A stretch of 63,942 nucleotides of DNA, filler included. It is 4 parts of 4 records of this genome, joined end to end, with 100 filler letters (N's around TTAATTAATTAA, not from the genome) between each part and the next. Parts side by side here need not be neighbours in the genome. Positions count along the whole stretch, not along the records: positions 1 to 14,543 come from DRR723986_5016; 3 more parts are not named here. One strand, written 5' to 3'. The first letter of the stretch is position 1, and each line of letters starts with the position of its first letter. The notes below the pieces were generated by a model. The model saw nothing but the letters and a program-made list of their open reading frames with translations. It did no database searches and was not told the origin of the DNA. Positions 2,324-19,083 of the stretch are shown one piece after another. Both the position numbers and the translations under genes were made by a program.

Positions 2324-2389
2324 GTGGTAGGGTCCAGCCCACCATTCGCCAATGAGGGGGTAAGCCGGACCTGTGTCGTTGTCGCGTTG

Positions 2390-4438
2390 TCAGTAAGGGC
2401 GCACATCCACAAAGGTCTCGTTATAAACAGCGCCGCATTCGATGTCGGTGCGAATGTCTGATGGGATCAGCGCGTTCACGGTCAACCCAGTGTCAGAGGT
2501 CGCGCGCCATGTGCCTTTGGGCGAATACAGCACGCCGGGGCGGGTGGCATCGGTCACTTTTAGTCGCAACGTGACCTGTCCCCGGTTGTTGAAAACGGTG
2601 ACCTTAACCCCGTCGCTGAGCCCACGCGCCGCAGCATCCGTGGGGTGCATTTCGACCACTTCCACCCCTTGCGAGGCTGCGTGACCGCCAAAGGTGGCGT
2701 TGGTGCGTTTGTCCGAACTGGGCGTGATAATCACAAAGGGACGGTCCTGCTGCACCGGGTCATAGCGCGGTACGCCAAAGCCAAACCGATCTTCGTAATC
2801 TTGGCAGAACAGTTCAATCTTGCCCGAGGGAGTGCCCGGTTTCACGGTCTTGCACATGATCATCTGCTCCCCACCCGGGGCCGTGATCTCAATCGCTTGA
2901 TCCAGCGGTAAATCGCTGCCTTTGAGCCCGTTGAGCTGTGGATGATCCGAGTTGATCGCGTCATCCATCAGTTGTGCATCATCTGCGTGGAACTCTGGGT
3001 CGTCATAGCCAAAGCGGGCGGCGAGGCGGCGGAAAATCTCGGTGTTGGGCAGGCTTTCACCCACACAAGGGATCACCGGCGCGGCGCGTTGCAGATAGTT
3101 TTGCCCATAGGCGCCGAACACGTCGTTGTGCTCAAAATGCGAAGACGCGGGCAGGATTACATCACACAGTGCCATGCTGTCTGTCATCACCACATCGCTG
3201 CCTGCCAAAAACAAGTCCTCGCGCATCAGGCCCTCGATCAGGTTGGCCTGATCCGGGTGCGTGGCCACCGGGTTGTGGTTGTAAATCATCGCGGCGGTGA
3301 TTGGCGTTTCCAGCGTGTCATCTTGGAGCGCCGCACCCAGATCAACGATGTTGATCACGCGGGTGCCGGGCTTCATCAGTTGATTACCGTGCAGCCGGGG
3401 TTGGTTTTTCGGCGTAGCGACACCGGATTTCGCAAGAACCCCAGCGCCCAGACGACCATGGTGACCGGTGAGGGCGGGCAATACCATCCCGGCCCGCAAT
3501 CCTGATCCGCCAGAGCGGCCGCGTTCAATCCCGTTCCCAAAGGAACACGCCATGTTTTTCGCGGCCACAATCAAGTCTGCAAAGGCGTGGAACTCTTTGG
3601 CAGGGACGCCACAGATTTCTTCGACCTTTTTGATGCTGTAGGCCCGTGCCTGCGCCATATAGGTGTCAAAGCCGGTCACCCATTCGTCGATGAAGGCACG
3701 GTCCAAGGCGTCACGCCGTTCCAGCTCGGCCGCTAAACCCATGGCAAACACGACGTCTGTGTTTGGTCTGATCTGAATGTGCATGTCACATTGTTCTGCG
3801 ATCTTGATGCGCTTGGGGTCGATGATGATCAGCTTGCCGCCCTGTTTGCGCATCTCTTTGAGCAAGGGCGCGAGGTGCAGGTTGGATACCGTCACGTTGT
3901 TGCCCCAGACCAAAACCAGATCTGAATGCAGCACCTGAACTGGTGGCATGCCCGGCGCGTTGCCGAAAACGCTGGCATAGGCGCCGCCGCGCACTGCGCC
4001 GCACAATGGGCCACGGTTCAGCATCGTGGCACCCATGTTGTAAAAGAACCGACGGTCCATGGACCCTGCGGCCAATTCACCGTGCGGGCCGGCGTAGTTG
4101 AACGGTAGGATGGTTTCGGGACCGTGTTTGTCGATGGCTGCGGTAAAGGCTGCGTGGATCAGATCCAACGCTTCGTTCCAGCTGATCCGTTCAAAATTGC
4201 CCGATCCACGCGGGCCAACCCGTTTTAGCGGATGGGTCAAACGCGCCGAGCCATGTACGAAATCAGGGTAATATCGTACAACTTTGTTGCAAACCACACC
4301 ATCCGTGTAGGGGTTCGCCTTGGACCCTTTGACTGCAGTCAAGGTTCCGTCTCGGACGTGTGCAGTGAGACTGCAGGTGTCGGGGCAATCCAGTGGACAG
4401 ACACTGGGAAGGGTTACGGGGGTGGCGTGCTGGGTCAT
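2390..4438 (-). CDS. Molybdopterin-dependent oxidoreductase (DMSO reductase superfamily, N-terminal Fe-S motif, no Tat signal)
   Basis: CPLDCPDTC...VCNK Fe-S motif, RLTHPLKR, ISWNEALD, DVILPA, C-terminal MHPTDAAARGL molybdopterin-dinucleotide domain. Confidence 0.9.
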   Translation of the reverse strand: MTQHATPVTLPSVCPLDCPDTCSLTAHVRDGTLTAVKGSKANPYTDGVVCNKVVRYYPDFVHGSARLTHPLKRVGPRGSGNFERISWNEALDLIHAAFTAAIDKHGPETILPFNYAGPHGELAAGSMDRRFFYNMGATMLNRGPLCGAVRGGAYASVFGNAPGMPPVQVLHSDLVLVWGNNVTVSNLHLAPLLKEMRKQGGKLIIIDPKRIKIAEQCDMHIQIRPNTDVVFAMGLAAELERRDALDRAFIDEWVTGFDTYMAQARAYSIKKVEEICGVPAKEFHAFADLIVAAKNMACSFGNGIERGRSGGSGLRAGMVLPALTGHHGRLGAGVLAKSGVATPKNQPRLHGNQLMKPGTRVINIVDLGAALQDDTLETPITAAMIYNHNPVATHPDQANLIEGLMREDLFLAGSDVVMTDSMALCDVILPASSHFEHNDVFGAYGQNYLQRAAPVIPCVGESLPNTEIFRRLAARFGYDDPEFHADDAQLMDDAINSDHPQLNGLKGSDLPLDQAIEITAPGGEQMIMCKTVKPGTPSGKIELFCQDYEDRFGFGVPRYDPVQQDRPFVIITPSSDKRTNATFGGHAASQGVEVVEMHPTDAAARGLSDGVKVTVFNNRGQVTLRLKVTDATRPGVLYSPKGTWRATSDTGLTVNALIPSDIRTDIECGAVYNETFVDVRPY

Positions 4439-4514
4439 GGCGGGCCTCGTGTCATAGGGGTGTTTCCCTTTGCTAGGCCCGGAAGGGGTATGCATTAAGC
4501 TCCAAAATTTGGAT

Positions 4515-4537
4515 ATTTGAGCATACCAATTTCAAAC
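4515..4537 (-). promoter_or_regulatory. Putative operator upstream of the molybdopterin oxidoreductase
   Basis: Minus strand reads GTTTGAAATTGGTATGCTCAAAT (TTTGA-N11-TCAAA inverted repeat); similar to 551-572. Confidence 0.4.
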
Positions 4538-4695
4538 TATGCATAGGGTAAGAACCAAGAGTACGGGCAAGCAAGGACATGTAGATCTGACTACAGCAAC
4601 AGGATTTGGACAGGGCCTAGGTTTGTGGCGCCTCACGATCTCGCTCTTGTGTTGCCCAAGATGTCGTTCTCTTTGAAGGGCCGGTTTTGGCGGTC

Positions 4696-5886
4696 TTAGA
4701 AAACAATGCGCGTTCTTAGGCCAATCAACGTGATGCTGCTTTGATTGGGGTTTGTAAGTGGATTATCAATGAACTGGATCGACGGAGTGATTTGAAGCCC
4801 CGGCGAAATGGAGAATCGATAGAACAGCTCAACCGTTTTTTGGCTGCCTGGCACTCCGTTTGCCTCGGCCCAATTCAGCCCAATCCCTGCGCCGTCTGTG
4901 TTGCGCCCGTAGTAGCCGATGCCCGCAGAGACGGATCTGTTGTACAAGGCCGCAGTTCCCTTGGATGCGCCCGCGCGAAAGAAGGGGAGCCAGGTGTTGT
5001 CCACCAGCCAAGCCGCAGAAAAGGCCGCGCCGTAATCTTCTTGACGGCTGCCGTTGTCGGCGGCGTCGGCATGCCAGAGCGTTAGGTGAATGTTGTCGAG
5101 ATAGATACGATCAAACCCAGATGTGTACCCAATTTCTAAACTTTTGAAGAGTTCGCCATCCCGAAACACATCAAGGTCAGGGCTGCTTGGATCCGCGTTG
5201 GCATCCGCCAAACTTCCGACGACATAAAAGTTGTTCCCCAACCTTGCACCACCCGCAATCCCAAGACCCGGATTGGGAGTGTTGATGGTCGGGTTGGTGT
5301 TAAAGGCAAGGTTTTGAAACGCGGTATACGGGCTGACAGCGCCGTAGATATCAAGAAAATCGGTCACATCAATCTGACCGACTTGCAATGTCCACGAGTC
5401 GTTGGCTGCCCGTTGGGTCCAGAACAGGTTGGTTAATAGCACGCCGTTGTCGTTGAAAGCGGACCCCGTTATCGACAGCGCCCCGCCGTCCAGCCCAAGG
5501 AATTGCGGTGCAACAGGGGTGTAGGCATCCCGGCTTTCGAACTTGAAGGTCACCGAACCAAGTTTGGTCGCCTGCCAATTGCCGTAGAACCGCACAATGC
5601 CACTGGCTGCTTCGCCAGTGCCAATGTCCGCATTTGTTGATTGTCCAAGCGCAAGGTAGTCTAGGTTGAACCGAAACCCCTTTTCAGCCAATCCGTCTTT
5701 CCATGCGAACCACCCCGGCGCCACGTTGCGCGGGAAGTCAGACCGAAACTGAGGATCGGTTAGCCCATCCCCCGGTTCTAGCTCTGCCTCAACCGAGGAT
5801 GGACCACCTAACCCCTGCGCCAGAACCGGCGATGCCCCCCCGCAGAGGATCAGCGCGGCCGCTACAGTGTGTAGGTTCAGCTTCAT
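4696..5886 (-). CDS. Carbohydrate-selective porin, OprB family
   Basis: Signal peptide, amphipathic beta strands, ELFYRF...QITPSIQFI.NP motif, C-terminal Phe (GLRTRIVF). Confidence 0.85.
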   Translation of the reverse strand: MKLNLHTVAAALILCGGASPVLAQGLGGPSSVEAELEPGDGLTDPQFRSDFPRNVAPGWFAWKDGLAEKGFRFNLDYLALGQSTNADIGTGEAASGIVRFYGNWQATKLGSVTFKFESRDAYTPVAPQFLGLDGGALSITGSAFNDNGVLLTNLFWTQRAANDSWTLQVGQIDVTDFLDIYGAVSPYTAFQNLAFNTNPTINTPNPGLGIAGGARLGNNFYVVGSLADANADPSSPDLDVFRDGELFKSLEIGYTSGFDRIYLDNIHLTLWHADAADNGSRQEDYGAAFSAAWLVDNTWLPFFRAGASKGTAALYNRSVSAGIGYYGRNTDGAGIGLNWAEANGVPGSQKTVELFYRFSISPGLQITPSIQFIDNPLTNPNQSSITLIGLRTRIVF

Positions 5887-5911
5887 GTCAGCACCTCAAA
5901 TCCCTCTGACT

Positions 5912-7831
5912 TCAGTTGCTGCTGGCACGCGGCACAATCAGTGGGTCAAACATCGAAGCCTGTGAATTTCCAGCGAACACAGCCTGTGTCCAGTCCTGCT
6001 GTGCCGTCGCCTGATCCTCATAAACGCCATGAATGCGGCACAGGAACAGTTCGGAGTCGTCGAATGCATTGGGCTGCGCAAACCAATCTTGCGGCTTGTT
6101 TTGAGGCAAATCGACCTTGGCTGTGCGATAGTTTACCGGCTCACTAGATTGAGGACGCTCAAGCGAGGACTGATCATCAAGGATGTCGTCATAGAGCGTT
6201 GGGCGGGCACCGCCGGTGTCGGTCGTAAATGTGCGCAGCCATTGCTGTTTGTTCGATGGTTCGAAACGCCCCACCTTTTCGACAGGGTAACGGATAGCTT
6301 GCCCGGGGTTTACGTCTTTCAGAACTTTGCTGTCAGAGACAACGATTGTGCCATGAACCAACACATACGGAATTCCGGTAGAGGGGAGGCCGTTCTTGCC
6401 TTTGGAATATGTTGCATTTTCGGTGACATTCACGGGGTCGAAAATGGTGATATCGGCGATCATTCCCTCTTGGATGCGGCCACGTACATCCATCGCTTTG
6501 ATCCCGGCGTCGCCCAATTGTTTGGCGGCCCAATAGCTGAGTTGCGACAATGAGAACATCAAGGGGACTTCGTTTTCACGGGCCAATCGCAACAGGATTG
6601 CATGTGATCCGGCGGAACGGGGATGGCCTGCATAATCCTCAAACGGTGAGTCCCATTCGAGCCGCTCTCCCTTTTCGTTCAATCCGGGCATCCCATCGCC
6701 TGAAATCACAAAATTGGGAACTTTGATCCAATCTTTGATCCATTGTTCGCGCGGGGGGCTAAAGGCAATTGCAGTGCGTCCGGGCTCAGAGTCCTTAAAC
6801 GCGAGAAACTCTTCTTTGGTGACATATCTATCCAGCTGAGGATCAAAAATGGTTTCCTCATACTTGTATCCCATCGAGCCTTCCCAATTGTCTGGGCCGA
6901 GAATGGAAGCACCATAGTTTCCCGATCCAGCGGTCCAAGGATACCAGGTTGACCAGACATTATGCCCCTGAGCGCGCGCCAGTTGCATCTTTTCTTCAAT
7001 CTCCCACCAACCATAGTCATTGGTGTGATGGAGCTGAAGGGACGCGCCCAGAACCATTGCATTTGTGAGCAGCTCATTCGCACCCGTGGCGGTTTCAATT
7101 GGGGTCGAGGCGCTTGGGTGAAAGCGATGATGGGCGGCGGTTAAACGGCCATATTTGGCGGCGATTTTCTGGGCTTCAAACATTTCATAGGTTGTGATGC
7201 CTTCGCGCGCATAGCCAATAGTTGACCCAACGCCCAACGCGCCCTGACGCAGACCTTCGTCAAGTGTTGCAGTGATTTGATTCATCTGGTCCAGTGTGCT
7301 GCGCGTAACGGACCACCCATCAACGCCATCCTCGGCAGCGTCGATGCGGTAGTCAAAAAAGTACGGCATCGAGACATTTGGCCCTTCGAGGGCCAAACCA
7401 TCATGCACCCGCATACGTGCGAATTCCTGCCCGACCACGGTGCCAAAATTGGCTTGCCTGTTGCCTGTACGTTCGGCGTACCACTCGGAAATATTAAGAG
7501 CGCCAACTTCGAAATCCATCTGCGTTGTCACACCATCACGCAAATTCAGCTTGATCCCAAAGGGCCGCAACCCGTGTTGTTCCAGATCAATAAACCCCGG
7601 TGCAACAACATGGCCGGTTGCGTCAATGGTTTCAGCGCCTTCGATGGTAGTCTCAGTAATCTTGGTGATCCAGCCGTTGTTGATGCCAACGTTTGCGATT
7701 TGGTCGAACCCGGTCTCGGGATCCATCACCCTGCCATTTAGGATGACAACGTCATAGTTCTGGGCGAAAACTTGGGTAGATAGCGCTGATGTAACAAAAA
7801 GAACTGAAAGTAATGTGTTCCGCGGTCTCAT
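5912..7831 (-). CDS. Secreted amidohydrolase (N-acyl-D-amino-acid deacylase-like) with C-terminal extension
   Basis: Signal peptide; DVVILNGRVMDPETG, VVAPGFIDLEQH, GHPRSAGS, GRIQEGMIADITIFDP, GIPYVLVHG motifs. Confidence 0.85.
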   Translation of the reverse strand: MRPRNTLLSVLFVTSALSTQVFAQNYDVVILNGRVMDPETGFDQIANVGINNGWITKITETTIEGAETIDATGHVVAPGFIDLEQHGLRPFGIKLNLRDGVTTQMDFEVGALNISEWYAERTGNRQANFGTVVGQEFARMRVHDGLALEGPNVSMPYFFDYRIDAAEDGVDGWSVTRSTLDQMNQITATLDEGLRQGALGVGSTIGYAREGITTYEMFEAQKIAAKYGRLTAAHHRFHPSASTPIETATGANELLTNAMVLGASLQLHHTNDYGWWEIEEKMQLARAQGHNVWSTWYPWTAGSGNYGASILGPDNWEGSMGYKYEETIFDPQLDRYVTKEEFLAFKDSEPGRTAIAFSPPREQWIKDWIKVPNFVISGDGMPGLNEKGERLEWDSPFEDYAGHPRSAGSHAILLRLARENEVPLMFSLSQLSYWAAKQLGDAGIKAMDVRGRIQEGMIADITIFDPVNVTENATYSKGKNGLPSTGIPYVLVHGTIVVSDSKVLKDVNPGQAIRYPVEKVGRFEPSNKQQWLRTFTTDTGGARPTLYDDILDDQSSLERPQSSEPVNYRTAKVDLPQNKPQDWFAQPNAFDDSELFLCRIHGVYEDQATAQQDWTQAVFAGNSQASMFDPLIVPRASSN

Positions 7832-7966
7832 AAATGCCTCACAGGTTGCGTCTCTAAACCCATGTTAACCCAATGATTGAGAACGGTGTTATTCCTTAGA
7901 TGAGGTGACATTCAAAAGCATCACGCGAAATGAATGCTATTGGTGAGAACGCTGTTATGATAACGT

Positions 7967-8950
7967 ATGCGTACCGATCCAACACAAAGTATATTACTTC
8001 TGCATCCCTTTCTTGATGCACTGACAGCGCGTGGGTGCTCGCCCGAAAAACTGGCAGACAGGCTTGGCGTCGATCTCTTTGAGCTGGATGACCCATCAAC
8101 ATTGCTCCCTGCAAATACGGTTTACGGGTTTCTTCGCTGGGCCTCAGAACGGACCGAGGATAAGACACTGTGCGGATGTCTTGGGATGCGAATGGCCCAA
8201 GGTGAGTGGGCTCCTTTTCTTCCGCTTCTTGCCGGAAACTTGACGGTTTGGCAGTTTTTAATGCGCTTCAGTTCAAGCGCTGAAGATCAAGGAGGCTCAG
8301 CCGCATACCGGTTAGAAGTGGAAGGCCGGATTGCGCTGTGGAAGTTGTCGCGTCCAGTCAGTGCCTCCAACGATGCAGTCTATGCTGATGCGATTGCGGT
8401 CGGGTTTTTCGTCGAGGTTCTGAAAGGAGCCATGTCTGAGAACTTTGACTATAGAAAGCTTTTAGCCATCACATCAGATCAGGCTTTGATTGCTGAGGAG
8501 ATCTTACCCAGAGCTTCCGTACTTGACGGAGCAAGGGGTATGACGCTGCGCTTTCCGTCATCATGGCTGGAAGCGAAGTTGAAAACGGTGAAGCCGACAT
8601 CAAATCTTCCTGCCATTGGGCTTCCGGACGTGGGCATCGTGGATCTTGTTGAAAGGACACGGCGCGTTGTTCATCGCCGGATATCTGATGCTGAGTTTGA
8701 TCTTAAGGATACTGCCTATACCTTGGGTATATCTGTTTGGAAATTGCAGTCCGGGCTAAGAGACGCGGGCACCAGCCTGTCTGAAATTCGCAACGACGTC
8801 AGGAAGGAACTGGCTATCGAACGTATCGGTAGGGAAGATAGCGAGATCGCTGAAGTCGCCGTCTCGCTCGGTTACACGAGCAGTTCAAACTTTACTCGTG
8901 CATTTCGAAAATGGACGGGAGCCAGCCCAAGCCAATTTCGAGGTGACTAA
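7967..8950 (+). CDS. AraC family transcriptional regulator
   Basis: C-terminal IAEVAVSLGYTSSSNFTRAFRKWTGASPSQFR signature; divergent from the amidohydrolase-porin pair. Confidence 0.9.
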   Translation: MRTDPTQSILLLHPFLDALTARGCSPEKLADRLGVDLFELDDPSTLLPANTVYGFLRWASERTEDKTLCGCLGMRMAQGEWAPFLPLLAGNLTVWQFLMRFSSSAEDQGGSAAYRLEVEGRIALWKLSRPVSASNDAVYADAIAVGFFVEVLKGAMSENFDYRKLLAITSDQALIAEEILPRASVLDGARGMTLRFPSSWLEAKLKTVKPTSNLPAIGLPDVGIVDLVERTRRVVHRRISDAEFDLKDTAYTLGISVWKLQSGLRDAGTSLSEIRNDVRKELAIERIGREDSEIAEVAVSLGYTSSSNFTRAFRKWTGASPSQFRGD

Positions 8951-8970
8951 CACGTCCTCATTTTCCTTCT

Positions 8971-9220
8971 CTACCCAGCATTCATTCAAAAGCAGCCGTT
9001 CAAGAAAATCGCAGCGAATGACGGCTGTCCGCCCGGAGTGTCGAAGCGCCATGCCCGCTTAGGGCTAGCAGCAGCCATCCGCAGGTGATGGCCGCTTTGC
9101 GCAGGAAGCAGACTTTGCAAAGTCGCATGACGGCCGTCTGTCGACCTTCGTCGACGGCGCAGCTAGCGACAGCAAGGAGCCCATATTGTACAATTTCTGC
9201 GCTGCAACTAATGCCTGCTT
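8971..9220 (+). repeat. Cluster 1 of degenerate 30-bp palindromic units with 15-16-bp GCAGCG linkers
   Basis: Units at 8971-9000, 9017-9046, 9050-9079 (catgcccgctta-gggcta-gcagcagccatc), 9087-9116 (gatggccgcttt-gcgcag-gaagcagacttt) and 9165-9194; linkers at 9001-9016, 9149-9164 and 9195-9209. Confidence 0.75.
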
Positions 9221-9388
9221 TAATGTGGGTGACCGCCAGTCACATCCGAGATCAAAAGATGTGGGCGAGCCTGCTTTGTTGATGGCATGTAGTTTCTATA
9301 GTCACTTAGATTGCGCGATGTGCCGCATGCTCTTGCAAACATCGCGGGCCTAGGTATGTAAAATGTTTGAGAAGGCAGTTCGCTCCCG

Positions 9389-10030
9389 ATGCAGATAGTT
9401 GACAACATAACCGACCTTGACGGGACGGATTTTGATTCATGCGAATTTAACTCGCTGCGCTTTGATGGCATGGATCTTTCACAATACCGATTTGAGAACA
9501 GCATCTTCCTTGATTGCAGCTTTAACAGCGCACTCATGGAAGAGAGTACATTTCTAAAGTGTAAGGCGCTCAATGCTGATTTCAGCTACTCTCGCATATC
9601 TGACGCCCAATTTGAGGGGTGCAATCTGTCCCTCACGAACTGGTCAGGGGCGGACATAACGGGCTCCATATTTCGTGATTGTAAGTTAACCGGTGCGGAT
9701 TTCAAAGACGCACGCGCCTTAGGAATAGACTTCAACGGTTCCGTTCTCTCGGGTGCGTTTCTGCGTAAGATGAATTTTCGGAAGCACCACTTGGATGGCA
9801 TCGACTTTACCGAAGCTGATCTTGCTGGGTGTGATTTTCGTGATGTGACCTTTGACAAATGCCGTTTACAAGCAGCCCATCTTGCGACGGCACGTTTTGA
9901 TGGCGCGGATCTGCGTTCGGCTGACCTCGGGATTCTGACGTTCTCTAATGTGACTTGCTTTAAGGGCGCGATCATTTCCAAGAATCAGGCAACCGAGTTG
10001 CTGCATGGGTTGGGTTTGATGGTTCTTTGA
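9389..10030 (+). CDS. Pentapeptide repeat protein (Qnr/MfpA-like fold)
   Basis: Continuous A(D/N)(L/F)xx pentapeptide repeats with periodic Cys/Phe over about 200 aa; C-terminal ..QATELLHGLGLMVL helix typical of the family. Confidence 0.9.
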   Translation: MQIVDNITDLDGTDFDSCEFNSLRFDGMDLSQYRFENSIFLDCSFNSALMEESTFLKCKALNADFSYSRISDAQFEGCNLSLTNWSGADITGSIFRDCKLTGADFKDARALGIDFNGSVLSGAFLRKMNFRKHHLDGIDFTEADLAGCDFRDVTFDKCRLQAAHLATARFDGADLRSADLGILTFSNVTCFKGAIISKNQATELLHGLGLMVL

Positions 10031-10190
10031 TATTGATGTGATCGCCGGCTGGCTCATTCGCAACTTAGCTGACCAATTGTGGTGGCAAAATCGCCGATCG
10101 CGCTTGAATTCAGGCAATCAAAACCGCAGTGTGGCTAAGTTTATAGACAAACAAAGACGAAACCACTCTAGACTTCGCATGTAGACGCTT

Positions 10191-12866
10191 TTGAAAAGGG
10201 AGAACCCGGTGCGGTACCTGATAAAAGGTTTAATGGCGTTGGGTACAATTGCCCTAGTTTTAGTCTGTGCAGCCTGGCTCATCCTTTCGTCGTCTATGTT
10301 TTCGTCGTTGAGAACAGCTTTCGTTGAAAACATGATTGCTGAAAAACTTGGCCAAACTGTCTTGATCGAAGATGATGTACGAATTGGCATCGGAGCCAAG
10401 CTAGAAGTCTCAGCGACTGGTTTACAGCTTCCCAGTTCGTCAATTGAAGGTGTCGACCTCGCGGTTATCGACACCTTGCACTTTGATATTTCAACAAAAG
10501 ACTTATTGAAGGGCAAGTTGTCACTTAGCAAACTTACTGTGGCAGGGGTTCACCTGAATCTCTTCACCAACGCTGACGGTGCCACAACCTGGCAGGCGGT
10601 GTCCGAAAATGAAAACGGTCAAAAGAAACCCGCCAAATCCTCTGAGAGCGCGGTCACCGACATTTTTTCAGATCAGGGAATCAGTCTGAGCGACGTAATA
10701 GTCCTTTACCAGAATGCTCAAAACGGTCTGGACTTAGATATTCAACTTTCTGACATGGTTCTGAACAAAGGCACTGCCACCGAAGATGCTACTGCGATTG
10801 GGGCCGGTACATTGAACGGTGAACCCTATAAACTGAAAGGCCTCTTTCCATCCGAGGACCCGTTTCATGTCTCGATTGAGTTTGAACACATTTCTATAGC
10901 CGCAAACCAAATCGCTCAGACCACCGGATTGGAAGTAAAAACGACGGTCGAGATCGTCGAACTTGGGCAGTTACAAGATTTGCTCAAACTTGATCGCGTT
11001 TTGGAAGGAACAGGGAGCATTAGTGCAACCTATAAAACCCAAGAAGAAGTGGCGCGTATTGATGATCTCGATGTCGAGGTGCAATTGGCCGGCGGGCAAA
11101 GCCTTGGCGTGATGGGACACATCGGCGAACTTGGAAACCCCGCAGATGTTTCGCTAACAACCCGGATCAGGCTTTATCCAGAGGACGCTGAGCCCGCAGC
11201 TACCAATAGGCGCAAAGATCTCAAACTTATCGCTGTTGATATGATCATTGACAGCGTCCCTGGGCAAACGCCTCAGCGTCAGATGGTTATCAAAACCAAT
11301 GGCTTTACTTTGGACACCTCTGGCGAAGGGCCGCCGCCAATAAAATTCTCCGGAATTTCCAGAACGCCCAACGGCGCCCTGCGGGTCGGCAACGTGAATT
11401 TGCGAATTGGGGTGCCATCCGATCCTATCATTATTTTGAATGGGTCCATCGAGGACGCTTTGCAGTTACAGGGTATTTCTGCGGAGGGTGTGCTGGACAT
11501 TCCAGCCAGCAGTCTGATTTCACCAGAGCTGTTGGGAGCAGATGATCAACTGGGCAAGTTCACCGGTCTCTTTCACCTAGATGGCGATATCGACCAACTC
11601 TCACTCTCCGATTTGAATGGTGAGACTAGTGAAACAGATCTTTGGAGCCTCAACGTTCATGGAACAGTGAACAATGTCCTAAAATTTGAGAACATAGATT
11701 TGGGAATAAGCGTCAAGGTACCCTCCGGCGCAGAGCTCTTACAAGCATTGTCCCTTGAGCCGGTTGAGACAGGGCAGGCCAGCTTTAACGTTAACTTACG
11801 CAGTCAAGGTACCGATTGGAGCACAAGTGCCGACGTGGTCGTCGCTGACTCAGGGTTGAACATTTCAGCTGAGCTTGATGACGCAACAACCAATCCCGTT
11901 TTGCAGGCAACCATCCATAGCGACCTTATAAAGATTGACCAAATTCGCACGATTGTATTGGCTGCCCTACAATTAAGGAAATTAGGAAATTCGGATGACG
12001 CGAACACCCCGAGCGAAGACGCGGAAACGCCCGAAGGAGCTCCAAACCCTCTTCGCGATGTAACCCTCACGCCGATCGGTCGATCCATTCTTTTGTCCGG
12101 ATTGGACATGGATGTCGACGTCGATTTGCGCCAAATCGAAGGCGCCAAGGGCATCAGCAGTTTGCAGAGCGAGGTGACTTTGGACGAAAAGAACCTCAGC
12201 TTTGGACCTTTGGAATTTGAATATGGCGGCGGCCACTTCCACGTGGACGGCCATATGGACCTTACCGATGATGCGCATCTACTAACAATTTCTGGCAAAG
12301 CTGGGGGATGGCAATTAGATGACATCCTGCACAGCCTGAATTTCAAAAAGGGGGCGAGCGGCACTATTCATGCCGATTTCAACCTCACAGGTGGCACAGA
12401 GTCGATCAAAGGCTTTGCACGTTCTATCTCAGGCAACGCGACAGTTTCCATGTCCAACGGATCGATTGAAACTCAGCTTCTCGACTTGGCTGGTCTAGGG
12501 GTATTGCCTTGGGTGTTTTCCAAAGAGAAACAGAAGGTTGCGCCCATTGTCTGCTTACGCGCGCCTTTGAGCATTTCCAATGGAACGATCTCAACCAAGA
12601 AGACCACGTTGGAAACGGACCAGGTGCAAGTCGTTGTCTTTGGAGGGGTGGACCTGAGGAAGAAACAATTGGATCTCAATCTACAGCCTCGCAAGATTGG
12701 TGATCCCCTTTCACGCAGCCCATGGCCAGCTACGTTAAAGGGGCCAATAAACCAGCCAAAGATCAAAGTTAAGGATGGGCCAAGAAAGCTAAAGCGTTCG
12801 GATGGTGCAGATCAAATGCCTGCAAAAAGACAACTCTGTGTTCCCGACATTTTGCAGCTTCAGTGA
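10191..12866 (+). CDS. AsmA family protein
   Basis: N-terminal TM anchor, long beta-rich body, C-terminal AsmA-like region (GNATVSMSNG...TLETDQVQVVVFGGVDLRKKQLDLNLQPR...LKGPINQPKI); start codon uncertain. Confidence 0.8.
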   Translation: MKRENPVRYLIKGLMALGTIALVLVCAAWLILSSSMFSSLRTAFVENMIAEKLGQTVLIEDDVRIGIGAKLEVSATGLQLPSSSIEGVDLAVIDTLHFDISTKDLLKGKLSLSKLTVAGVHLNLFTNADGATTWQAVSENENGQKKPAKSSESAVTDIFSDQGISLSDVIVLYQNAQNGLDLDIQLSDMVLNKGTATEDATAIGAGTLNGEPYKLKGLFPSEDPFHVSIEFEHISIAANQIAQTTGLEVKTTVEIVELGQLQDLLKLDRVLEGTGSISATYKTQEEVARIDDLDVEVQLAGGQSLGVMGHIGELGNPADVSLTTRIRLYPEDAEPAATNRRKDLKLIAVDMIIDSVPGQTPQRQMVIKTNGFTLDTSGEGPPPIKFSGISRTPNGALRVGNVNLRIGVPSDPIIILNGSIEDALQLQGISAEGVLDIPASSLISPELLGADDQLGKFTGLFHLDGDIDQLSLSDLNGETSETDLWSLNVHGTVNNVLKFENIDLGISVKVPSGAELLQALSLEPVETGQASFNVNLRSQGTDWSTSADVVVADSGLNISAELDDATTNPVLQATIHSDLIKIDQIRTIVLAALQLRKLGNSDDANTPSEDAETPEGAPNPLRDVTLTPIGRSILLSGLDMDVDVDLRQIEGAKGISSLQSEVTLDEKNLSFGPLEFEYGGGHFHVDGHMDLTDDAHLLTISGKAGGWQLDDILHSLNFKKGASGTIHADFNLTGGTESIKGFARSISGNATVSMSNGSIETQLLDLAGLGVLPWVFSKEKQKVAPIVCLRAPLSISNGTISTKKTTLETDQVQVVVFGGVDLRKKQLDLNLQPRKIGDPLSRSPWPATLKGPINQPKIKVKDGPRKLKRSDGADQMPAKRQLCVPDILQLQ

Positions 12867-13007
12867 CATGCTAGGCAAGCATGCCAGAACTAACGAGCAA
12901 GTGAGGGGCATCGCAACAATGTCTTTTCTGCAAGGCTCTGACATTCGCTTCGTTTGACCACTCACCCCAGAAATCTCGAGTAAGTGGGCAGGTTCATTCT
13001 TTTGGAC

Positions 13008-13230
13008 AGAGCTCACTAGCTGCCTATAGCTGCCCTTCGTGTACAGCTCAGTGAATTAACATTTTCCACGCTCAATGTTTGAAGTCCATGTCCGCTTTGG
13101 GCTGCCTGCAGCCACCCATGGCTGCTTAGACCTCGCCCAAATGAAGGATAATGGCGCTGCACCGCAGCAAGGCGGCTTTGAGCCCATTTTTCTGTTTCGT
13201 CAAGGCGCAGCGAATGACTGCAAACTCAGA
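13008..13230 (+). repeat. Cluster 2 of the same palindromic repeat family
   Basis: Units 13087-13116 (catgtccgcttt-gggctg-cctgcagccacc) and 13168-13197 (caaggcggcttt-gagccc-atttttctgttt); linker 13198-13212 (cgtcaaggcgcagcg) followed by aatgac; linker-like 13038-13053. Confidence 0.75.
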
Positions 13231-13261
13231 TACCAACTAAGAAAATATGGTAGTGAGGTGT

Positions 13262-13882
13262 TCAGTAATAGCGGCAGGTCAAGCCATGTCGGTACATTGC
13301 GTGTGCAAGCTGAGACATGTCACCCGCGCGCGCAGGAAACTCCATAACAACGTTGATTCGAACAGAGAATAAAAGTTTCTCATCAGCGGTCAGGTATCGA
13401 GCGGTGTGGTTCCGCTGAGCAAATGAACCATGGTCACCAGATTGAATTTCGGAAAGCCATTTCATCAATACGTTTGATTTGGCTTGCAGTTCATTTGTAC
13501 CGAGCGTTCTATTATCACTCCAAGAAATGCGAAGTTCGCGAAGTTTGGCATTTAGCTCTTCAATTGTCATACCCGAAGCTTCGGCCCGGGCAGGCCAAGC
13601 AACATTGTATCGGGTCGAAAGCTGTTTCCCATACGGCCATTCAAGGCGTCCTGGGTCGGTTTCATAGCTCTGAACATCAAACAGGCTGATTGTGGCGAAG
13701 GACTCGGATAATTCGGTCAGTTTAACATTGCAGTCCTTGATAACTGCCTCAAAATTTCCACTTAGACGGTCGTCTTCGTGTATCGGACTCGAAGGGAAAA
13801 ACCGATCAAGCTCAGTTGTGGCAAAAGCTTGGCTGCAACTCATTAAAACTAGGGCGACAAATAGACTTCCAGATCCCGACAT
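13262..13882 (-). CDS. Hypothetical secreted protein
   Basis: 206-aa ORF with signal-peptide-like N-terminus (LFVALVLMSCSQAFA) and AGG-containing RBS; no family recognised. Confidence 0.65.
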   Translation of the reverse strand: MSGSGSLFVALVLMSCSQAFATTELDRFFPSSPIHEDDRLSGNFEAVIKDCNVKLTELSESFATISLFDVQSYETDPGRLEWPYGKQLSTRYNVAWPARAEASGMTIEELNAKLRELRISWSDNRTLGTNELQAKSNVLMKWLSEIQSGDHGSFAQRNHTARYLTADEKLLFSVRINVVMEFPARAGDMSQLAHAMYRHGLTCRYY

Positions 13883-13983
13883 TAATACCTAATCCTGTTT
13901 CCAAGTAATTCCTGCGTCTGGTGCATGGGATCGTCGAGCTTAGCATTTTATCGCAATAAATACTGCATAGTGTGCATTAGGTT

Positions 13984-14174
13984 TATGTCGGCTTCGTCCG
14001 CACAACTGCTGTTGGGCGGGCCTCCTTTGCTGGACTGCAACCTTCTTACTGCGGAGAACATGCAAGGTTCGTTGTTCCGCGTTGCAGACCTAATCTTGGT
14101 TTGACCCCAATGGTCGCTTGGAACGGCTGTAGCCCTTACCGGAAAACGTGCAGCTTTCCGCCATACGAGCCGTT
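13984..14174 (+). repeat. Cluster 3 of the same palindromic repeat family
   Basis: Units 13984-14013 (tatgtcggcttc-gtccgc-acaactgctgtt), about 14064-14092 (aaggttcgttgttccgcgttgcagaccta) and about 14146-14174 (acgtgcagctttccgccatacgagccgtt). Confidence 0.6.
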
Positions 14175-14543
14175 GCATTCGTTCAAAAATCAGTTCCGAG
14201 TTTGAAATCTGGAATACTGACCGATGCAATGCTTGCCGCGCTGTAATTATTGCGATTTTCCGTTTCTGGGAATTGATAGCAATACCGGGAACAGGATTTC
14301 CCAGTTAGCGTGTCAATCTTCGCGGTTTTTTTGAGGTTAGGGCAGGGGCGAACTTAGCCTAAAGTCCTGATTTAAAGGGAGGCACAAGCGCCTTGATGCG
14401 TTTGCAATTATCTCTGTTGCAAAATGCGCAAAACGTTCTGAGAACCCCGTTTGAAGCCTTGTTGAAAAACATCAGGCGTTCGGCTGAGATTGAGCCGTAT
14501 TGCGCTATAAATCCCTGTTTTTACTGATCCTGTCCGGGTTCTT

Positions 14544-14643: not shown

Positions 14644-14987
14644 GCCTCAAGCAAAGTTCCTCTGACACTGCCCTCGAATGGGCGTGATGAGCATGGAGCG
14701 GACGTCCTCGGGTGTGATCACTCTCCCTGCCGTCTTTTGAAAAGAGTCAAATATACACACGCATATGCCACCTAGGGATACACATCTGAGAAGCTATCGT
14801 TGGAGCGAAGGTCAAAAAATTCGAGCCTGCCTTCAACTCTCCACCTGTAAACAATGGTACATGATTCAAAATTCTTTTCAGTTTTTTGCTCAAAGGCCTG
14901 TCGGTACAAATCATCTCTACAAACAAGGCGAATTTTGGCTTGGAGCGCTTCTCCGTCCCGGTTTCGCCGATGACAAGGAGGAAAGAA

Positions 14988-15959
14988 ATGTTCAAGATTT
15001 CAACGGGACTCGGGTGCTTATTTGCTGCGGCAATCACCGCCTCGGCGGCCCAGGCAGACGACTGCGGTGAAGTATCACTGATGCAGGCCGATTGGGGGTC
15101 AGCGCAAATTGTGACTGCGGTCTCGAAGTTCCTGATGGAGCAAGGCTATGGTTGCGAAGTGACCACGGTTCCGCTCTCGAGCAACCCTGCGCTGGCATCC
15201 GTATCCGAGACCGGGGAGCCTGATATTCTGACTGAAATCTGGACAAACGGCGCGCCGGCTTACCAAGGGCTGGTTGACTCAGGTGCGATCATTCCTGTGA
15301 CCGAAGTTCTGTCAGATGGCGGTGTCGAAGGGTTTTTTGTTCCGAACTACCTTGTGGAGGAACATCCGGAACTGGCAACACTTGAAGGCATCGCAGCCAA
15401 CCCCGAACTCGTCGGAAATCGCTTTCACAACTGCCCCGAAGGGTGGACCTGCCTGAATGTCAGCACCAACCTGATGAAGGCAGGCGGGCTGATCGATGCA
15501 GGCATTGAAAACTTTGTGCATGGATCTGGCGAAACCCTCGCGGCTTCGATCGCTGCCGCCTACGAAAACAAAGAGCCATGGTTCGGCTTTTATTGGGCGC
15601 CGACATCGGTACTGGGCAAATACCCGATGACTCTGGTCGATATGGGTCCCCATGACCCTGAAAAGCATGCCTGCAACATCACGGCGGAATGCGCGACGCC
15701 AGAAGTCAGCGCCTTTCCCCGCAGTGTCGTGGTCACAGTTCTCTCCAAGGAATTCATGGCTGAAAACGCAGCAGTGTCTGACCTGATGACAAATTTGTCC
15801 TTCACCAACACACAGATGGGCGAAACGCTGGCATGGGTCGAGGACAACAATGCCTCCTACGATGAAGGTGCTGTGCACTTTCTGACGACCTACAAGGATG
15901 TCTGGGGGGCGTGGCTTAACGATGCTGCGCGCGACAAACTTTCCGCATTGCTGCAGTAA
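14988..15959 (+). CDS. Glycine betaine/proline-type ABC transporter substrate-binding protein (ProX/OpuAC family)
   Basis: AGGAGG RBS, signal peptide; CGEV..MQADWGSA, GYGCEV, PDILTEIW, NCPEGWTC and FYWAPT motifs. Confidence 0.9.
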   Translation: MFKISTGLGCLFAAAITASAAQADDCGEVSLMQADWGSAQIVTAVSKFLMEQGYGCEVTTVPLSSNPALASVSETGEPDILTEIWTNGAPAYQGLVDSGAIIPVTEVLSDGGVEGFFVPNYLVEEHPELATLEGIAANPELVGNRFHNCPEGWTCLNVSTNLMKAGGLIDAGIENFVHGSGETLAASIAAAYENKEPWFGFYWAPTSVLGKYPMTLVDMGPHDPEKHACNITAECATPEVSAFPRSVVVTVLSKEFMAENAAVSDLMTNLSFTNTQMGETLAWVEDNNASYDEGAVHFLTTYKDVWGAWLNDAARDKLSALLQ

Positions 15960-15970
15960 ACTGCATGGAA

Positions 15971-15994
15971 AGGGGCATCCTCAGTGATGCCCCT
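15971..15994 (+). terminator. Stem-loop after the substrate-binding protein gene (mRNA stabiliser or attenuator)
   Basis: AGGGGCATC-ctcagt-GATGCCCCT 9-bp stem without a U tract. Confidence 0.55.
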
Positions 15995-16026
15995 AACGCA
16001 GTGAAGAAGATTGGAAAGTTGGATAA

Positions 16027-17055
16027 ATGGCCTTCTACGACAAGTTATTCAGCGCCTTGGTTTTGAGCGACTGGTGCGGCACATCAGATGCCGATGCGCC
16101 TCTTTCGTTGGCGGACCTTGCGGCGCGAGCAGGGGGACAGGAGGCCTCTGGGCCGTTCTTTCCGATTCCTTCATTCGATAATCTGCATGAAAGCTGCAAC
16201 CGCATATGGCAGTCGCGCGATGTAACCAACGGTATCGAAGAAGGGTTTCTGGCAGCCAAACCTGCTCTGAAAGCTGTTCTGGATCCGATCACACAACCAT
16301 TGAGCTGGATGTTGGATGGCGCACTTTGGCTGTTTGAGGCGACGCCATGGTTCATCATGGTCCCGCTTCTGGTGGCGATTTCCTGGTACGCGTCGCGTTC
16401 GCGCCCTGTGACGATCTTCGTCGCCGTCTCGATCATGCTGCTGGCCCTCGTAGATCACTACGATGTGGCGATGCAAACCCTGTCGATCATCTTTGTGTGC
16501 ACGACGTTATCGGTGCTTTTCGGTGTGCCAATAGGAATTGCCATGTCGAAATCCGACCGATTGCAAAAAAGCGTCGTTCCGTTACTCGACCTGCTGCAGA
16601 CCCTGCCGACCTTCGTGTACCTGATCCCTCTGATTTTCTTGTTCTCGGTCACGGAATCCAAACTGTACGGGATTGCGATCATCCTTTACGCGATTGTGCC
16701 GGTGATCCGCCTGACAGATTTGGGCATCCGGCTTGTCGACAGGGATGTGATTGAGGCGGCTAATGCCTTTGGCATGACGGATCGCCAGAAACTGTTGCGG
16801 GTCCAATTGCCGTTGGCGTTGCCCAATATCATGGCCGGGATCAATCAGACCATCATGATGAGCCTTGCCATGGTCGTGATCGCCTCTCTTGTTTCGGCTC
16901 CTGGCCTTGGCGTGAACGTGTTGCGCGGTATCCGAAACCTTGAACTGGGTGTGGGCATCGTTGCGGGTATCGGCATCGTGCTGCTGGCCGTGATCCTTGA
17001 TCGCGTGTCCAAAGCGGCTCTCACACGGGTCGATAAAACCCAAGTCAAGCACTAA
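16027..17055 (+). CDS. Betaine-type ABC transporter permease (ProW family)
   Basis: LDLLQTLPTFVYLIP, EAA loop (IEAANAFGMT), IMAGINQTIMMSLAMVVIASLV. Confidence 0.92.
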   Translation: MAFYDKLFSALVLSDWCGTSDADAPLSLADLAARAGGQEASGPFFPIPSFDNLHESCNRIWQSRDVTNGIEEGFLAAKPALKAVLDPITQPLSWMLDGALWLFEATPWFIMVPLLVAISWYASRSRPVTIFVAVSIMLLALVDHYDVAMQTLSIIFVCTTLSVLFGVPIGIAMSKSDRLQKSVVPLLDLLQTLPTFVYLIPLIFLFSVTESKLYGIAIILYAIVPVIRLTDLGIRLVDRDVIEAANAFGMTDRQKLLRVQLPLALPNIMAGINQTIMMSLAMVVIASLVSAPGLGVNVLRGIRNLELGVGIVAGIGIVLLAVILDRVSKAALTRVDKTQVKH

Positions 17056-17067
17056 GGAGCCGTTTCG

Positions 17068-18126
17068 ATGACACAACCAATGGTCAGCCTTCGCGGGCTC
17101 TACAAGATCTTCGGCGCCCACGACAAAGAGGTGCTCAGCCACGTCAAGAACGGCATGGCTAAGGAAGAGTTGCTGGCGCAGCACAAACACGTGCTGGGTC
17201 TCAACGACATCAACGTCGACATGCAGGCGGGCGAAATCACCGTTGTCATGGGCCTGTCAGGCTCGGGTAAATCCACGCTGATCCGCCACCTGAACCGGTT
17301 GATCGAACCCACTGCGGGCGAGATCATGGTGCAGGGTGAGGACGTGATGAGCTTGTCTGAAGACGGGCTGCGTCATGCCCGCCAGGAAAAGATGTCGATG
17401 GTGTTCCAGAAGTTTGCGCTTATGCCGCACAAGACCGTGCTAAAAAATGCGGGCATGCCTCTGTCCGTGCGTGGCGAGGACGAGGCAACCTGCGACCGCG
17501 AAGCCGCGAAATGGCTGGATCGCGTTGGTCTGAGCGGGTTCGAGAACCACTATCCCGCGCAGCTGTCGGGCGGCATGCAACAGCGGGTGGGCATTGCCCG
17601 GGCGCTGACCGCAAACACACCGATCATGCTGATGGACGAGGCGTTCTCGGCCCTTGACCCGCTCATCCGAACCGACATGCAGGACCTGCTGCTCGAGCTG
17701 CAAAAAGAGCTGCACAAGACCATCATCTTCATCACTCACGATCTCGATGAGGCGTTGAAACTGGCCGATCACCTTGTGATCCTCAAGGACGGCTTTGTCG
17801 TGCAACAGGGCGAGCCGCAGCATATCCTGCTGAACCCCAACGATCCCTACATCGAAGACTTCGTGAGCGACATCAACCGCGCACGGGTTCTGCGGGTGCG
17901 CTCGGTTATGACTCCAATTGGGGGTGACAAAGTTCCCGCGGATGCCCATGGCGAAGTGGACGTGAACGACACGCTCGAAAGCATGATCGCGCGGTCCGGC
18001 GGGGATACGTCACACGCCTATGTCGTCAAAGATGGGGAGCAGACGGTCGGCACACTGGATATGACCGAACTGGTTCGCGCTCTCGTCCCTCGCGTCGCAT
18101 CCAAGGCCGGTGCGCGTCAGTCCTGA
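17068..18126 (+). CDS. Betaine-type ABC transporter ATP-binding protein (ProV family)
   Basis: Walker A GLSGSGKS, LSGGMQQRVG, MDEAFSALDPLIR. Confidence 0.95.
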   Translation: MTQPMVSLRGLYKIFGAHDKEVLSHVKNGMAKEELLAQHKHVLGLNDINVDMQAGEITVVMGLSGSGKSTLIRHLNRLIEPTAGEIMVQGEDVMSLSEDGLRHARQEKMSMVFQKFALMPHKTVLKNAGMPLSVRGEDEATCDREAAKWLDRVGLSGFENHYPAQLSGGMQQRVGIARALTANTPIMLMDEAFSALDPLIRTDMQDLLLELQKELHKTIIFITHDLDEALKLADHLVILKDGFVVQQGEPQHILLNPNDPYIEDFVSDINRARVLRVRSVMTPIGGDKVPADAHGEVDVNDTLESMIARSGGDTSHAYVVKDGEQTVGTLDMTELVRALVPRVASKAGARQS

Positions 18127-18159
18127 CGCGCGCTGACAGCAGAGCTGAATTTTATAAGA

Positions 18160-19083
18160 TCAGGCTCGAAATAGCCGCATGGTTGGGTCGGCCTCGATCC
18201 GTTCGAACAGCCAGTTGATAAATGTATCGAGCTTCGGGTTGGGTGTACGTTCTTTTTGCGTCGCCAGATACCAGCGGCCTGGTTCTGGCACCGATATGTC
18301 GAACGGTCTGACCAGACGACCCCTTTCAAGATCGCGCGCGCAAAACGGTGCTCTTGCGACGCTGATACCGCGATTGTTCAGAACAGCCTCACGGACAAGC
18401 GGGTAATTGTCGAAAATCGGGCCGAATTTCATAGTGCCACGGTCCAAGCCCGCCGCATCCAACCAACAGTCCCAGTCATCCGGCTCATTCCATGTGCTTG
18501 GGACACTCAGCAATAGGAAATTTCTTAGCTCTTCCAGCGGCATTCCACCGCTTGGCACATTCAAGGCCTCCGGTGCACAAACCGGGTAGATATCCGTTTC
18601 GAACAAGGGGTTATAGTCAAATCTCTTATCAAAAGGTGGTGCATTGAACACGCCCACATCGAACCGGTGCATGTCATAATCACCGTCTTCAAAGGTAGAG
18701 ACTATGCGCACGCGTGTGTCAGGATTGTTCTGAAGAAAATCTGCCAATCTGGGCTGTAGCCACATTGTGTTGAAACTTGCGTAGGACTGAACGAGCAAAA
18801 CGTTCGGCTCCTCGGGGGTCTGGATGCGCCGCGTGGCTTTGATGATTCCCTGAATGTGTTCGCGGATCGAAGGGTAGTATTGCTCGCCAGCCGGTGTCAG
18901 TTCGACCGAACGGCTGGTGCGTTCCAGCAGTTTGACACCGATTGATGTTTCCAGTGCCTTGACCTGGTGGCTGACTGCCGCATGCGTCACACAAATCTCG
19001 TCAGCCGCCTTTCGAAAGCTCTTGTGACGCGCTACCGCCTCAAAAGCGCGCAGTGAAACCAGCGTGGGCATATGAGTGGTCAT
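18160..19083 (-). CDS. LysR family regulator (GcvA-like)
   Basis: LRAFEAVARHKSFRKAADEICVTHAAVSHQVKALE helix-turn-helix; divergent from the CoA ligase operon. Confidence 0.92.
   Translation of the reverse strand: MTTHMPTLVSLRAFEAVARHKSFRKAADEICVTHAAVSHQVKALETSIGVKLLERTSRSVELTPAGEQYYPSIREHIQGIIKATRRIQTPEEPNVLLVQSYASFNTMWLQPRLADFLQNNPDTRVRIVSTFEDGDYDMHRFDVGVFNAPPFDKRFDYNPLFETDIYPVCAPEALNVPSGGMPLEELRNFLLLSVPSTWNEPDDWDCWLDAAGLDRGTMKFGPIFDNYPLVREAVLNNRGISVARAPFCARDLERGRLVRPFDISVPEPGRWYLATQKERTPNPKLDTFINWLFERIEADPTMRLFRA

Follow-up and report, generated by a model that had tools for sequence, protein, structure and literature searches.

Repeat arrays and gene modules in the window

The DNA window analysed here (63,942 nt in all), from a marine alphaproteobacterium, is made up of four contigs joined by N linkers (1–14543, 14644–27555, 27656–58030, and 58131–63942), a composite structure already recognized in an earlier reading made from the letters alone (hereafter the sequence-only reading). 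It carries arrays of a degenerate palindromic repeat of about 30 bp, referred to below as the unit, which lie between unrelated genes; our subject is the possibility that these units are sites at which gene modules are exchanged by a site-specific recombinase. On the plus strand of contig 1, an AraC-type regulator gene (7967–8950) lies upstream of the first array, which is followed by a pentapeptide-repeat gene (9389–10030; Pfam Pentapeptide_4, E 1.7e-31) and an AsmA-family gene (open reading frame (ORF) 10191–12866; Pfam AsmA, E 3.1e-19), also on the plus strand. Beyond a second array lies an orphan gene on the minus strand (13262–13882), which encodes 206 aa and belongs to no Pfam family. 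On contig 2, a third array sits behind an acyl-CoA dehydrogenase gene (26183–27361, plus strand; Pfam Acyl-CoA_dh), and the contig stops within this array, the likely cause of the assembly break there.

DNA comparison of contig 3 with genome G001 gave 98% identity across 19.3 kb, which puts the window strain and G001 in one species. The 27 kb of contigs 1 and 2 are absent from G001, which has only weak paralogue-level matches to them, and the DNA of 7900–14543 and 24800–27555 found no synteny partner among 72 genomes of the genus, only short unit matches. The absence of contigs 1 and 2 from G001, together with the lack of a genus DNA match to 7900–14543, places the flagged arrays in strain-specific DNA, where no fewer than three modules (pentapeptide, AsmA, and orphan gene) adjoin one another on contig 1.

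The arrays belong to a repeat family that can be recognized independently of the window. A hidden Markov model (HMM) whose training set of 61 distinct units came from other members of the genus, with none from the window, placed its six best window matches on the plus strand and within three of the four regions that the sequence-only reading had flagged. This profile scan recovered 8977–9219, 13004–13221, and 27442–27542; on contigs 3 and 4, where no arrays had been seen, no match reached E<1. The fourth flagged region (13984–14174, plus strand) falls outside the detectable family, with a best HMM match of E 5.7 and two arm matches against 1.6 expected, and its place as an array member is not supported. 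Part of it (13984–14120) forms other hairpins that are unusually stable (fold z −3.06; 0 of 200 shuffles as stable).

The first array begins behind the AraC-type gene with a stretch at 8977–9054 (plus strand, E 3.4e-8) that includes a linker end and left arm, GCAGCGAATGACGGCTGTCCGCCC (9011–9034, plus strand). Two near-complete units follow at 9050–9125 (plus strand; arm matches with one to three mismatches): in the first, core GGGCTAG separates left arm ATGCCCGCTT from right arm CAGCAGCCATC; in the second, core GCGCAGG lies between left arm ATGGCCGCTTT and right arm AAGCAGACTTT. A further match (9111–9219, plus strand, E 0.063) completes this array. Behind the AsmA gene, a weak unit (13004–13056, plus strand, E 0.027) carries the right-arm variant TAGCTGCCCTTCG, which is also found after the recombinase hairpin in metagenomic loci described below; next come left arm ATGTCCGCTTT and core GGGCTG (13087–13104, plus strand, from the arm scan) and a unit with GCAGCGAATGACTGC (13170–13221, plus strand, E 0.005) that lies some 45 nt from the orphan-gene stop. 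The third array comprises two to three units on the plus strand (matches at 27442–27491, E 0.013, and 27494–27542, E 6.6e-7), with matches of 41–46 nt at 83–91% identity in four other species of the genus. The 45–46-nt period described earlier is clear only here, at 27440/27485/27531; at 9011–9126 the spacing is 37–39 nt.

The motifs quoted in the sequence-only reading are where it placed them. GCAGCGAATGAC is exact on the plus strand at 9011, 13207, and 27527, and a fourth exact match, GCAGCGAATG, lies inside coding DNA at 1665. The cores GGGCT[AG] (9062, 13099), GAGCCC (9177, 13180), and GTCCGC (13996, 27499) are all in place, GTCCGC occurring additionally at 9027 and 13090. By themselves, these short motifs barely exceed chance (11 matches against a shuffle mean of 8.5, and 11 against 6.1), while arm matches with up to three mismatches number 8, 6, and 5 in the three supported regions against 2.1, 1.9, and 1.1 expected. 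Of the 30-bp palindromes that had been described, the geometry of the family stands; the window copies are decayed, and the three arrays fold as single strands no better than shuffled sequence (z +0.16, −0.70, and −0.66). Rfam at gathering thresholds gave no match in the window, and a generic repeat finder run on it did not detect the unit family.

The arrays border what had been read as a single pentapeptide and AsmA block; the outer borders hold, and the block itself divides into two modules with a junction near 10067. The pentapeptide module (9177–10070, plus strand), whose left border lies at a GAGCCC core, recurs alone, with 84.6% identity over 909 nt, on plasmid pP97_a of Phaeobacter porticola, where its neighbours are unrelated and weak units lie directly upstream of it; the plasmid match begins at GAGCCC (9177) and ends at about 10067–10070. 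The AsmA module (10067–13101, plus strand) occurs alone within a 47-kb contig of isolate X4 (99 differences and one 10-nt gap), and positions 10079–12876 occur alone within a 6.7-kb contig of isolate X6. Both contigs diverge from the window on both sides of the AsmA part, and window parts without cover in these contigs do not show absence from the two genomes. Two independent comparisons, the end of the plasmid match and the start of the X4 match (10067), meet near 10067, with the X6 match starting at 10079; the junction (10061–10078, plus strand) contains a right-arm-like sequence, TTAGCTGACCAATTG, which was called by eye and has no match in the arm scan. At its other end, the X4 match stops at 13101, behind ATGTCCGCTTTGGG and inside a core, between GGG and CTG. 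As judged from these alignment ends, then, three module junctions are located at or in apparent unit cores. The earlier suggestion that breakpoints fall in the 6-bp cores agrees with GAGCCC at 9177 and with the break at 13101, and that recombination produced these breaks is what we infer.

Further comparisons bear on the mobility of the units and of the orphan gene. Six separate X4 contigs and three from X6 match nothing but positions 9028–9125, which indicates that similar units are scattered through those genomes as dispersed repeats. On a plasmid of Yoonia sp., a hypothetical gene is 70% identical in DNA to the orphan gene, and a left arm, GCCGCGAATGGCCGC, is as far from the stop of this homologue as GCAGCGAATGACTGC is from the orphan-gene stop in the window. 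Homologues of the AsmA protein within the genus are only 23–27% identical and so provide no comparator. One metagenomic contig (X1) joins 9104 to 13092, skipping both modules; we rejected this joint as an empty site, since it occurs in a single contig, its short side has 23 letters, and the likeness is 85%.

The unit family and module borders in relatives

In the genus, the pattern GCAGCGAATGNCCGCTNCCCGCC with up to three mismatches gave 274 matches in 66 of the 72 genomes, against 16 matches for the reversed control. This corresponds to about four strict matches per genome, clustered by region, a figure in which degenerate copies are not counted. Alignments of genus units reproduce the geometry of arms, core, and linkers deduced from the window: in the chains, left arm GCAGCG-AATGNCCGCTT is followed by a spacer, then by right arm AAGCGGNCATTCG, and lastly by a linker that measures about 16 nt and has GCAGCG at its end. 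A strict palindrome of two arms around 6 nt, as originally formulated, is nearly missing from the genus (two matches in 72 genomes against three for the control), because the genus copies are degenerate.

The perfect form, AATGNCCGCTT-N6-10-AAGCGGNCATT, is patchy outside the genus. A scan of one genome per species found it in at least 120 loci, and most of those listed carry alphaproteobacterial titles (Pseudolabrys, Xanthobacteraceae, sphingomonads, Hyphomonadaceae, Rhizobium, Agrobacterium vitis, and Rhizomicrobium); in an even sample of the class, it was present in 3 of 401 genomes, all of one family. Perfect palindromes were also seen in records titled Pseudomonas, Lysobacter, Pantoea, Xanthomonas, and Noviluteimonas (L122, L156, L164, L170, L190, and others). 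Perfect copies have 11-bp inverted arms around a core of 6–10 nt: among the matches listed there are 125, in which the spacer between AATGNCCGCTT and AAGCGGNCATT measures 8 nt in 68, 9 nt in 31, 7 nt in 12, 10 nt in 9, and 6 nt in 5. Where they form chains, these have an exact 46-nt period and linkers like TGCAGCGCAAAACGCT (L144, L180, L191, L227, and L229).

Modules bordered by units also occur in unrelated contexts elsewhere in the genus, as the sequence-only reading would have it. One such module, a 1.77-kb gene pair for an EamA transporter with a TetR regulator, shows 96% identity between G005 and G087; its identity to the G059 copy is 89%. Within 20–30 kb of surrounding sequence nothing else is common to the three genomes at either the DNA or the protein level. 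Profile matches flank the pair on both sides, in the same orientation, in all three. The right break falls immediately behind ...GCTGTCCGCCC(A), and the left break lies in a long spacer ahead of a right arm. In G005 and G087, the module is closed by a left arm and GTCCGCCC, as found in the window at 8977–9054, with the right break after ...GTCCGCCC(A). In a separate pair of loci (L027 of G021 and L029 of G022), 99% identity extends up to ...CCGCTTCCCGCC, with complete divergence after it, and a duplication within G016 begins inside a left arm. Several independent comparisons show, as far as alignment ends define them, module borders at a fixed part of the unit.

Some further observations concern what adjoins the units. 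An IS5/IS1182-type insertion sequence (IS) element (DUF772 and DDE_Tnp_1), with end TATTCYGTTGAAAAACTC, lies behind ...CCCGCC at two different units, and an IS427-type element (DUF4096 and DDE) adjoins a unit of the type found at 27461; IS elements ending at units occur at L029 (G022), L066 (G004), and L047 (G056). A second repeat of about 130 nt adjoins a unit at L095 (15352–15483, G005); copies of this repeat at 82–85% identity are present in G087 (three), G058, G011, and G012, and repeat and unit together form a composite of about 250 nt that is also found in G011 and G058. One locus compared between two species (L069 and L097) differs by about 85 nt inside the array, which points to the gain or loss of whole units.

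A candidate minimal recombinase

The window encodes no recombinase, and the expectation that one is encoded elsewhere led to a candidate in relatives, including G001 of the same species. The candidate, P0001, is a protein of 221 aa whose gene lies between two arrays in G005. It matches Pfam Phage_integrase (E 6.8e-15, residues 56–207) and aligns with XerD, XerC, and XerA over residues 54–211, and thus comprises an Xer-type catalytic domain only; it scores under every curated family cut-off. The motifs LRGCDL, HSMRR, and GHKK...VRY are legible, and the conserved R, K, H-x-x-R, H/W, and Y residues could be assigned by eye. An exact look-up in a protein-cluster collection returned no entry. Homologues are present in 17 of the 72 genus genomes (including G001) and in 21 of the 401 class genomes, spread over 21 genera. 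Neither the orphan gene nor the AsmA gene was found to be related to P0001 or to a similar-sized gene of G011.

The recombinase gene itself occurs as a cassette beside unit arms. An 842-nt (0.84-kb) segment containing it is 87–94% identical at four places with unrelated flanks; in each, a left arm lies just beyond one end, and a right arm lies behind a GGGCCGG...CCGGCCC hairpin that follows the stop codon. The right arms vary more between the four places than the cassettes themselves, and accordingly belong to the targets. Of 15 full-length recombinase loci in the genus, 8 have a profile match no more than 170 nt from the gene.

The same arrangement recurs in 80 metagenomic loci whose proteins are 66–86% identical, in which the hairpin comes after the stop codon and a right arm comes straight after the hairpin. 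Of 58 distinct downstream flanks, 30 match AGCGGNCATT with up to two mismatches, against 13 in the opposite orientation and an estimated chance rate of about 10%; 25 of the 30 matches lie at +23 to +45, directly behind the hairpin. Upstream, most of these loci have a linker ending in GCAGC, a left-arm variant, GGGCTCG, and a right arm, followed by the promoter region. Approached from the opposite direction, 3 of 120 loci chosen solely for a perfect palindrome, among the matches listed, contain a recombinase gene, and one of the loci studied (L181) has complete palindromes with the inverse cores TGCGCCC and GGGCGCA on both sides of the gene. The co-occurrence of recombinase and motif envisaged by the sequence-only reading is therefore seen in part: the cassette lies between arms, but most unit-bearing genomes lack a homologue.

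Three side observations concern this gene family and its surroundings. An inverted repeat, GCTTGAGCGTTCAATTGTCTTGAACGTTGAGGC, is conserved between the unit and the recombinase start codon (for example at L239 and L240) and may act on the recombinase gene as an operator or as a hairpin that controls expression. In a metagenome-assembled genome assigned to Betaproteobacteria (L147), a perfect palindrome lies 3.3 kb from a homologue of the minimal recombinase. Seven places in G080 (for example L408, L412, and L413) score equally against P0001, each within an open frame of 322 aa; these places probably represent a mobile element present in multiple copies, whose tyrosine recombinase has no relation to the minimal family.

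Possible site-specific exchange, competing explanations, and known systems

As to the mechanism, the window arrays are decayed copies of a unit in which a core of 6–10 nt separates left arm AATGNCCGCTT from right arm AAGCGGNCATT, followed by a linker of about 16 nt with GCAGCG at its end, and such units mark the junctions between gene modules that would be independently mobile. We propose that the modules are exchanged by conservative site-specific recombination in or beside the unit core, catalyzed by a tyrosine recombinase encoded elsewhere. The best candidate for this enzyme would be the Xer-like, catalytic-domain-only recombinase of about 200–220 aa, itself a 0.84-kb cassette between arms, with host XerC/XerD as a possible fallback where the minimal recombinase is absent. 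The idea of a cassette system in the sequence-only reading keeps its observed part, the module borders at units; that recombination takes place at the units, and by which enzyme, we infer. In our judgement, the evidence is evenly balanced as to whether the units at module junctions are the recombination sites of a tyrosine recombinase. A fuller picture is offered more tentatively, at somewhat below even weight: marine Alphaproteobacteria may possess an integron-independent cassette system in which the 30-bp units are the sites of a minimal Xer-like recombinase, whose own gene is a cassette that sits in a unit core. Excised at cores, single genes or gene pairs would move between chromosomes and plasmids, even across families, and genomes devoid of the enzyme would keep scars or use XerC/XerD.

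A number of observations weigh against this proposal. The distribution of the enzyme fits poorly: 55 of the 72 genus genomes have no P0001 homologue while 66 have units, and homologues are missing from G087 and G059, which carry the EamA–TetR pair, and from the unit-rich genomes G021, G018, and G080. In the class sample, one of the three genomes with a perfect palindrome has the recombinase, the positives (3 of 401) being too few for a test of co-occurrence. At 19 class-level recombinase loci, no canonical palindrome adjoins the gene, loose matches occurring only within the gene or 285–464 nt downstream, and at this level an 8-mer arm motif is enriched only about 3-fold near the gene. Genus genomes with the recombinase have modestly more units than those without (4.9 against 3.5, one-sided p 0.015), a comparison in which related genomes are not independent. 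The window units are too decayed to be good sites at present, and neither a circle, nor a clean empty site, nor an excision junction was seen in the material compared. Finally, contrary to the earlier view, the units are not confined to accessory-gene borders. They lie mostly at the 3′ ends of ordinary genes in relatives; by a crude ORF call, 52 of 77 non-redundant profile matches in the loci analysed are intergenic, and 27 of these 52 lie between convergent genes and 6 between divergent genes. IS elements end at units too, so other processes also break DNA there.

Several of these points are what would be expected of ordinary repeats of the type known as repetitive extragenic palindromes (REP) and bacterial interspersed mosaic elements (BIME). 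Selfish or structural palindromes of this kind pile up at 3′ ends and in dispensable DNA, and module borders would coincide with them only because IS insertion, replication slippage, and homology-assisted integration of foreign DNA favour such repeats; the recombinase cassette would be another element landing in repeats. The bias towards convergent gene ends and the IS5/IS1182-type and IS427-type transposase genes that abut units accord with this explanation, as do arms that alternate in orientation with linkers and a 46-nt period, a unit number that varies between species at one locus (L069 and L097), and the presence of units in at least 49 genomes without the recombinase. The CGTC-type REPs of Alphaproteobacteria likewise lack a dedicated transposase, according to the text of PMC3733652. 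What such repeats account for less readily is that breaks recur at one position of the unit in independent events, namely behind CCGCCC in G005, G087, and G059 and in L027 and L029, and in the window inside the GGGCTG core and at GAGCCC. The arms held in common are degenerate and span only 11–14 nt, a short length for RecA-dependent exchange. Moreover, the REP-associated tyrosine transposase (RAYT) is missing from 64 of the 72 genomes and is not flanked by units where present, and copy number is low. We consider ordinary REP-type repeats a possible explanation, although a less probable one than exchange at recombination sites.

It is improbable, in our estimation, that the units serve the flanking genes as RNA or DNA signals (terminators, mRNA-stabilizing hairpins, or regulator operators) conserved for that function. 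The window units do lie directly behind stop codons on the same strand as the upstream gene, units in relatives favour convergent gene ends, and perfect copies in other taxa form strong hairpins. Set against this, the window arrays fold no better than shuffles, a terminator scan predicted no terminator-like site inside them, and Rfam yielded no match for the window. Unit orientation relative to co-directional neighbours is even (9 versus 10), the units accompany unrelated genes, and a signal function leaves the breaks in the core unexplained. A chance resemblance among GC-rich intergenic stretches, with no true repeat family behind it, would suit the near-chance counts of short motifs in the window but is scarcely credible in view of the independent profile matches (E 3e-8 and 7e-7), the excess of genus matches over control matches (274 against 16), and the separate contigs of other isolates that match the units. 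Chance is refuted for three of the four flagged regions and may still apply to 13984–14174.

The proposed exchange sites share features with several known repeat and recombination systems. With the REP/BIME elements of enterobacteria and the REPINs of Pseudomonas, they have in common imperfect palindromes, alternating orientation, and arrays joined by linkers, features that are clear in relatives and other taxa and weak in the window, as well as a position mostly downstream of genes or between convergent genes, numbers that vary between relatives, and use as IS targets. They differ in occurring at low copy rather than in hundreds per genome and in the module borders at a fixed place in the unit. 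A link to RAYT was rejected: PF01797 (Y1_Tnp) is present in 8 of the 72 genomes, and the 10 loci concerned are not unit-flanked, giving one weak unit match (E 0.029). RAYT is a Y1 HUH transposase, whereas the gene associated with the units encodes a tyrosine recombinase of the integrase fold. Among described alphaproteobacterial repeats, the CGTC/TGTC-tagged REPs are head-to-head dimers downstream of genes, without a dedicated transposase, with 8–9-bp stems starting A-T, 4–5-nt loops, a tag left unpaired, and a tail of 3 nt (Di Nocera, De Gregorio & Rocco 2013, PMC3733652). Compared with that description, as worded in the text of the article, the present units have 11-bp arms and 6–10-nt cores, and TGTC lies inside the paired arm; neither GTCCGC nor GCGGAC appears in the text, figures and additional files aside. 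The Br-REP1 and Br-REP2 elements of Bradyrhizobium, in the passages describing them, have sequences other than the unit (PMC5082802), and the passages on RepRanger (PMC12306157) do not mention it.

Integrons and clusters of attC sites lacking integron integrases (CALIN) resemble the present arrangement in that imperfect palindromes of a single family lie between unrelated single genes, modules are found elsewhere together with their site (here pentapeptide, AsmA, and EamA–TetR), and the recombinase may be missing from the array. P0001 lacks the N-terminal domain and matches the integron integrase IntI, which has a specific extra domain, only weakly (18.7 bits against a cut-off of 265). A search for the integron integrase (TIGR02249) in five genomes gave none above the cut-off (best 81.6 bits against 265), and the earlier view that the units are not integron sites holds insofar as no IntI is present in these five; by eye, that reading had also seen no fit to attC sites (R''/L''...L'/R', with RYYYAAC and GTTRRRY ends). 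Unit modules also differ from integron cassettes in having both orientations, gene pairs with their own regulators, and several units in a row. Nor do they resemble CRISPR arrays, as had been stated before: the units are degenerate, the linkers are conserved, and no cas gene is among the named ORFs of the window.

A further likeness is to the core sites of tyrosine recombinases. The loxP, FRT, and dif core sites share a layout of inverted arms around a core, with a crossover region of 6–8 bp and arms of 11–13 bp, and the perfect copies of the unit, with inverted 11-bp arms around 6–10 nt, are alike, those in the window being decayed. In the pdif modules of Acinetobacter plasmids and in dif-integrating elements, discrete modules are bounded by arm-core-arm sites and the Xer enzyme is encoded elsewhere; the present modules would resemble these Xer-dependent systems in arms of about 11 bp, in site-bounded modules, and in a predicted Xer-type enzyme located elsewhere. 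The units differ in forming arrays with a 46-nt period, in being both chromosomal and plasmid-borne, and in having a dedicated minimal Xer-like gene at some sites, and their sequence is presumably unrelated to dif. In size, at about 200 aa, the candidate is comparable to the FimB/FimE recombinases.

The proposed integron-like gene shuffling by these units and a tiny recombinase is apparently new to description. Literature searches covering the arm sequences, alphaproteobacterial REPs, and recombinases in connection with palindromes and cassettes did not find the unit or its link to the recombinase described, figures and supplements aside; the arm sequences led only to primers and to papers on other subjects. 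REP-type repeats that have no transposase have long been puzzling, a question raised, among others, in the text of PMC3733652. If the proposed exchange at units is correct, it would provide a function for one class of intergenic palindromes otherwise regarded as junk, and it would define a very small recombinase with a defined 30-bp site. Beside integrons, the textbook collectors of single-gene cassettes, there would be a second system, built from REP-like sites and a stripped-down recombinase, which would explain the placement of strain-specific genes in the large genomes and plasmids of marine Alphaproteobacteria.

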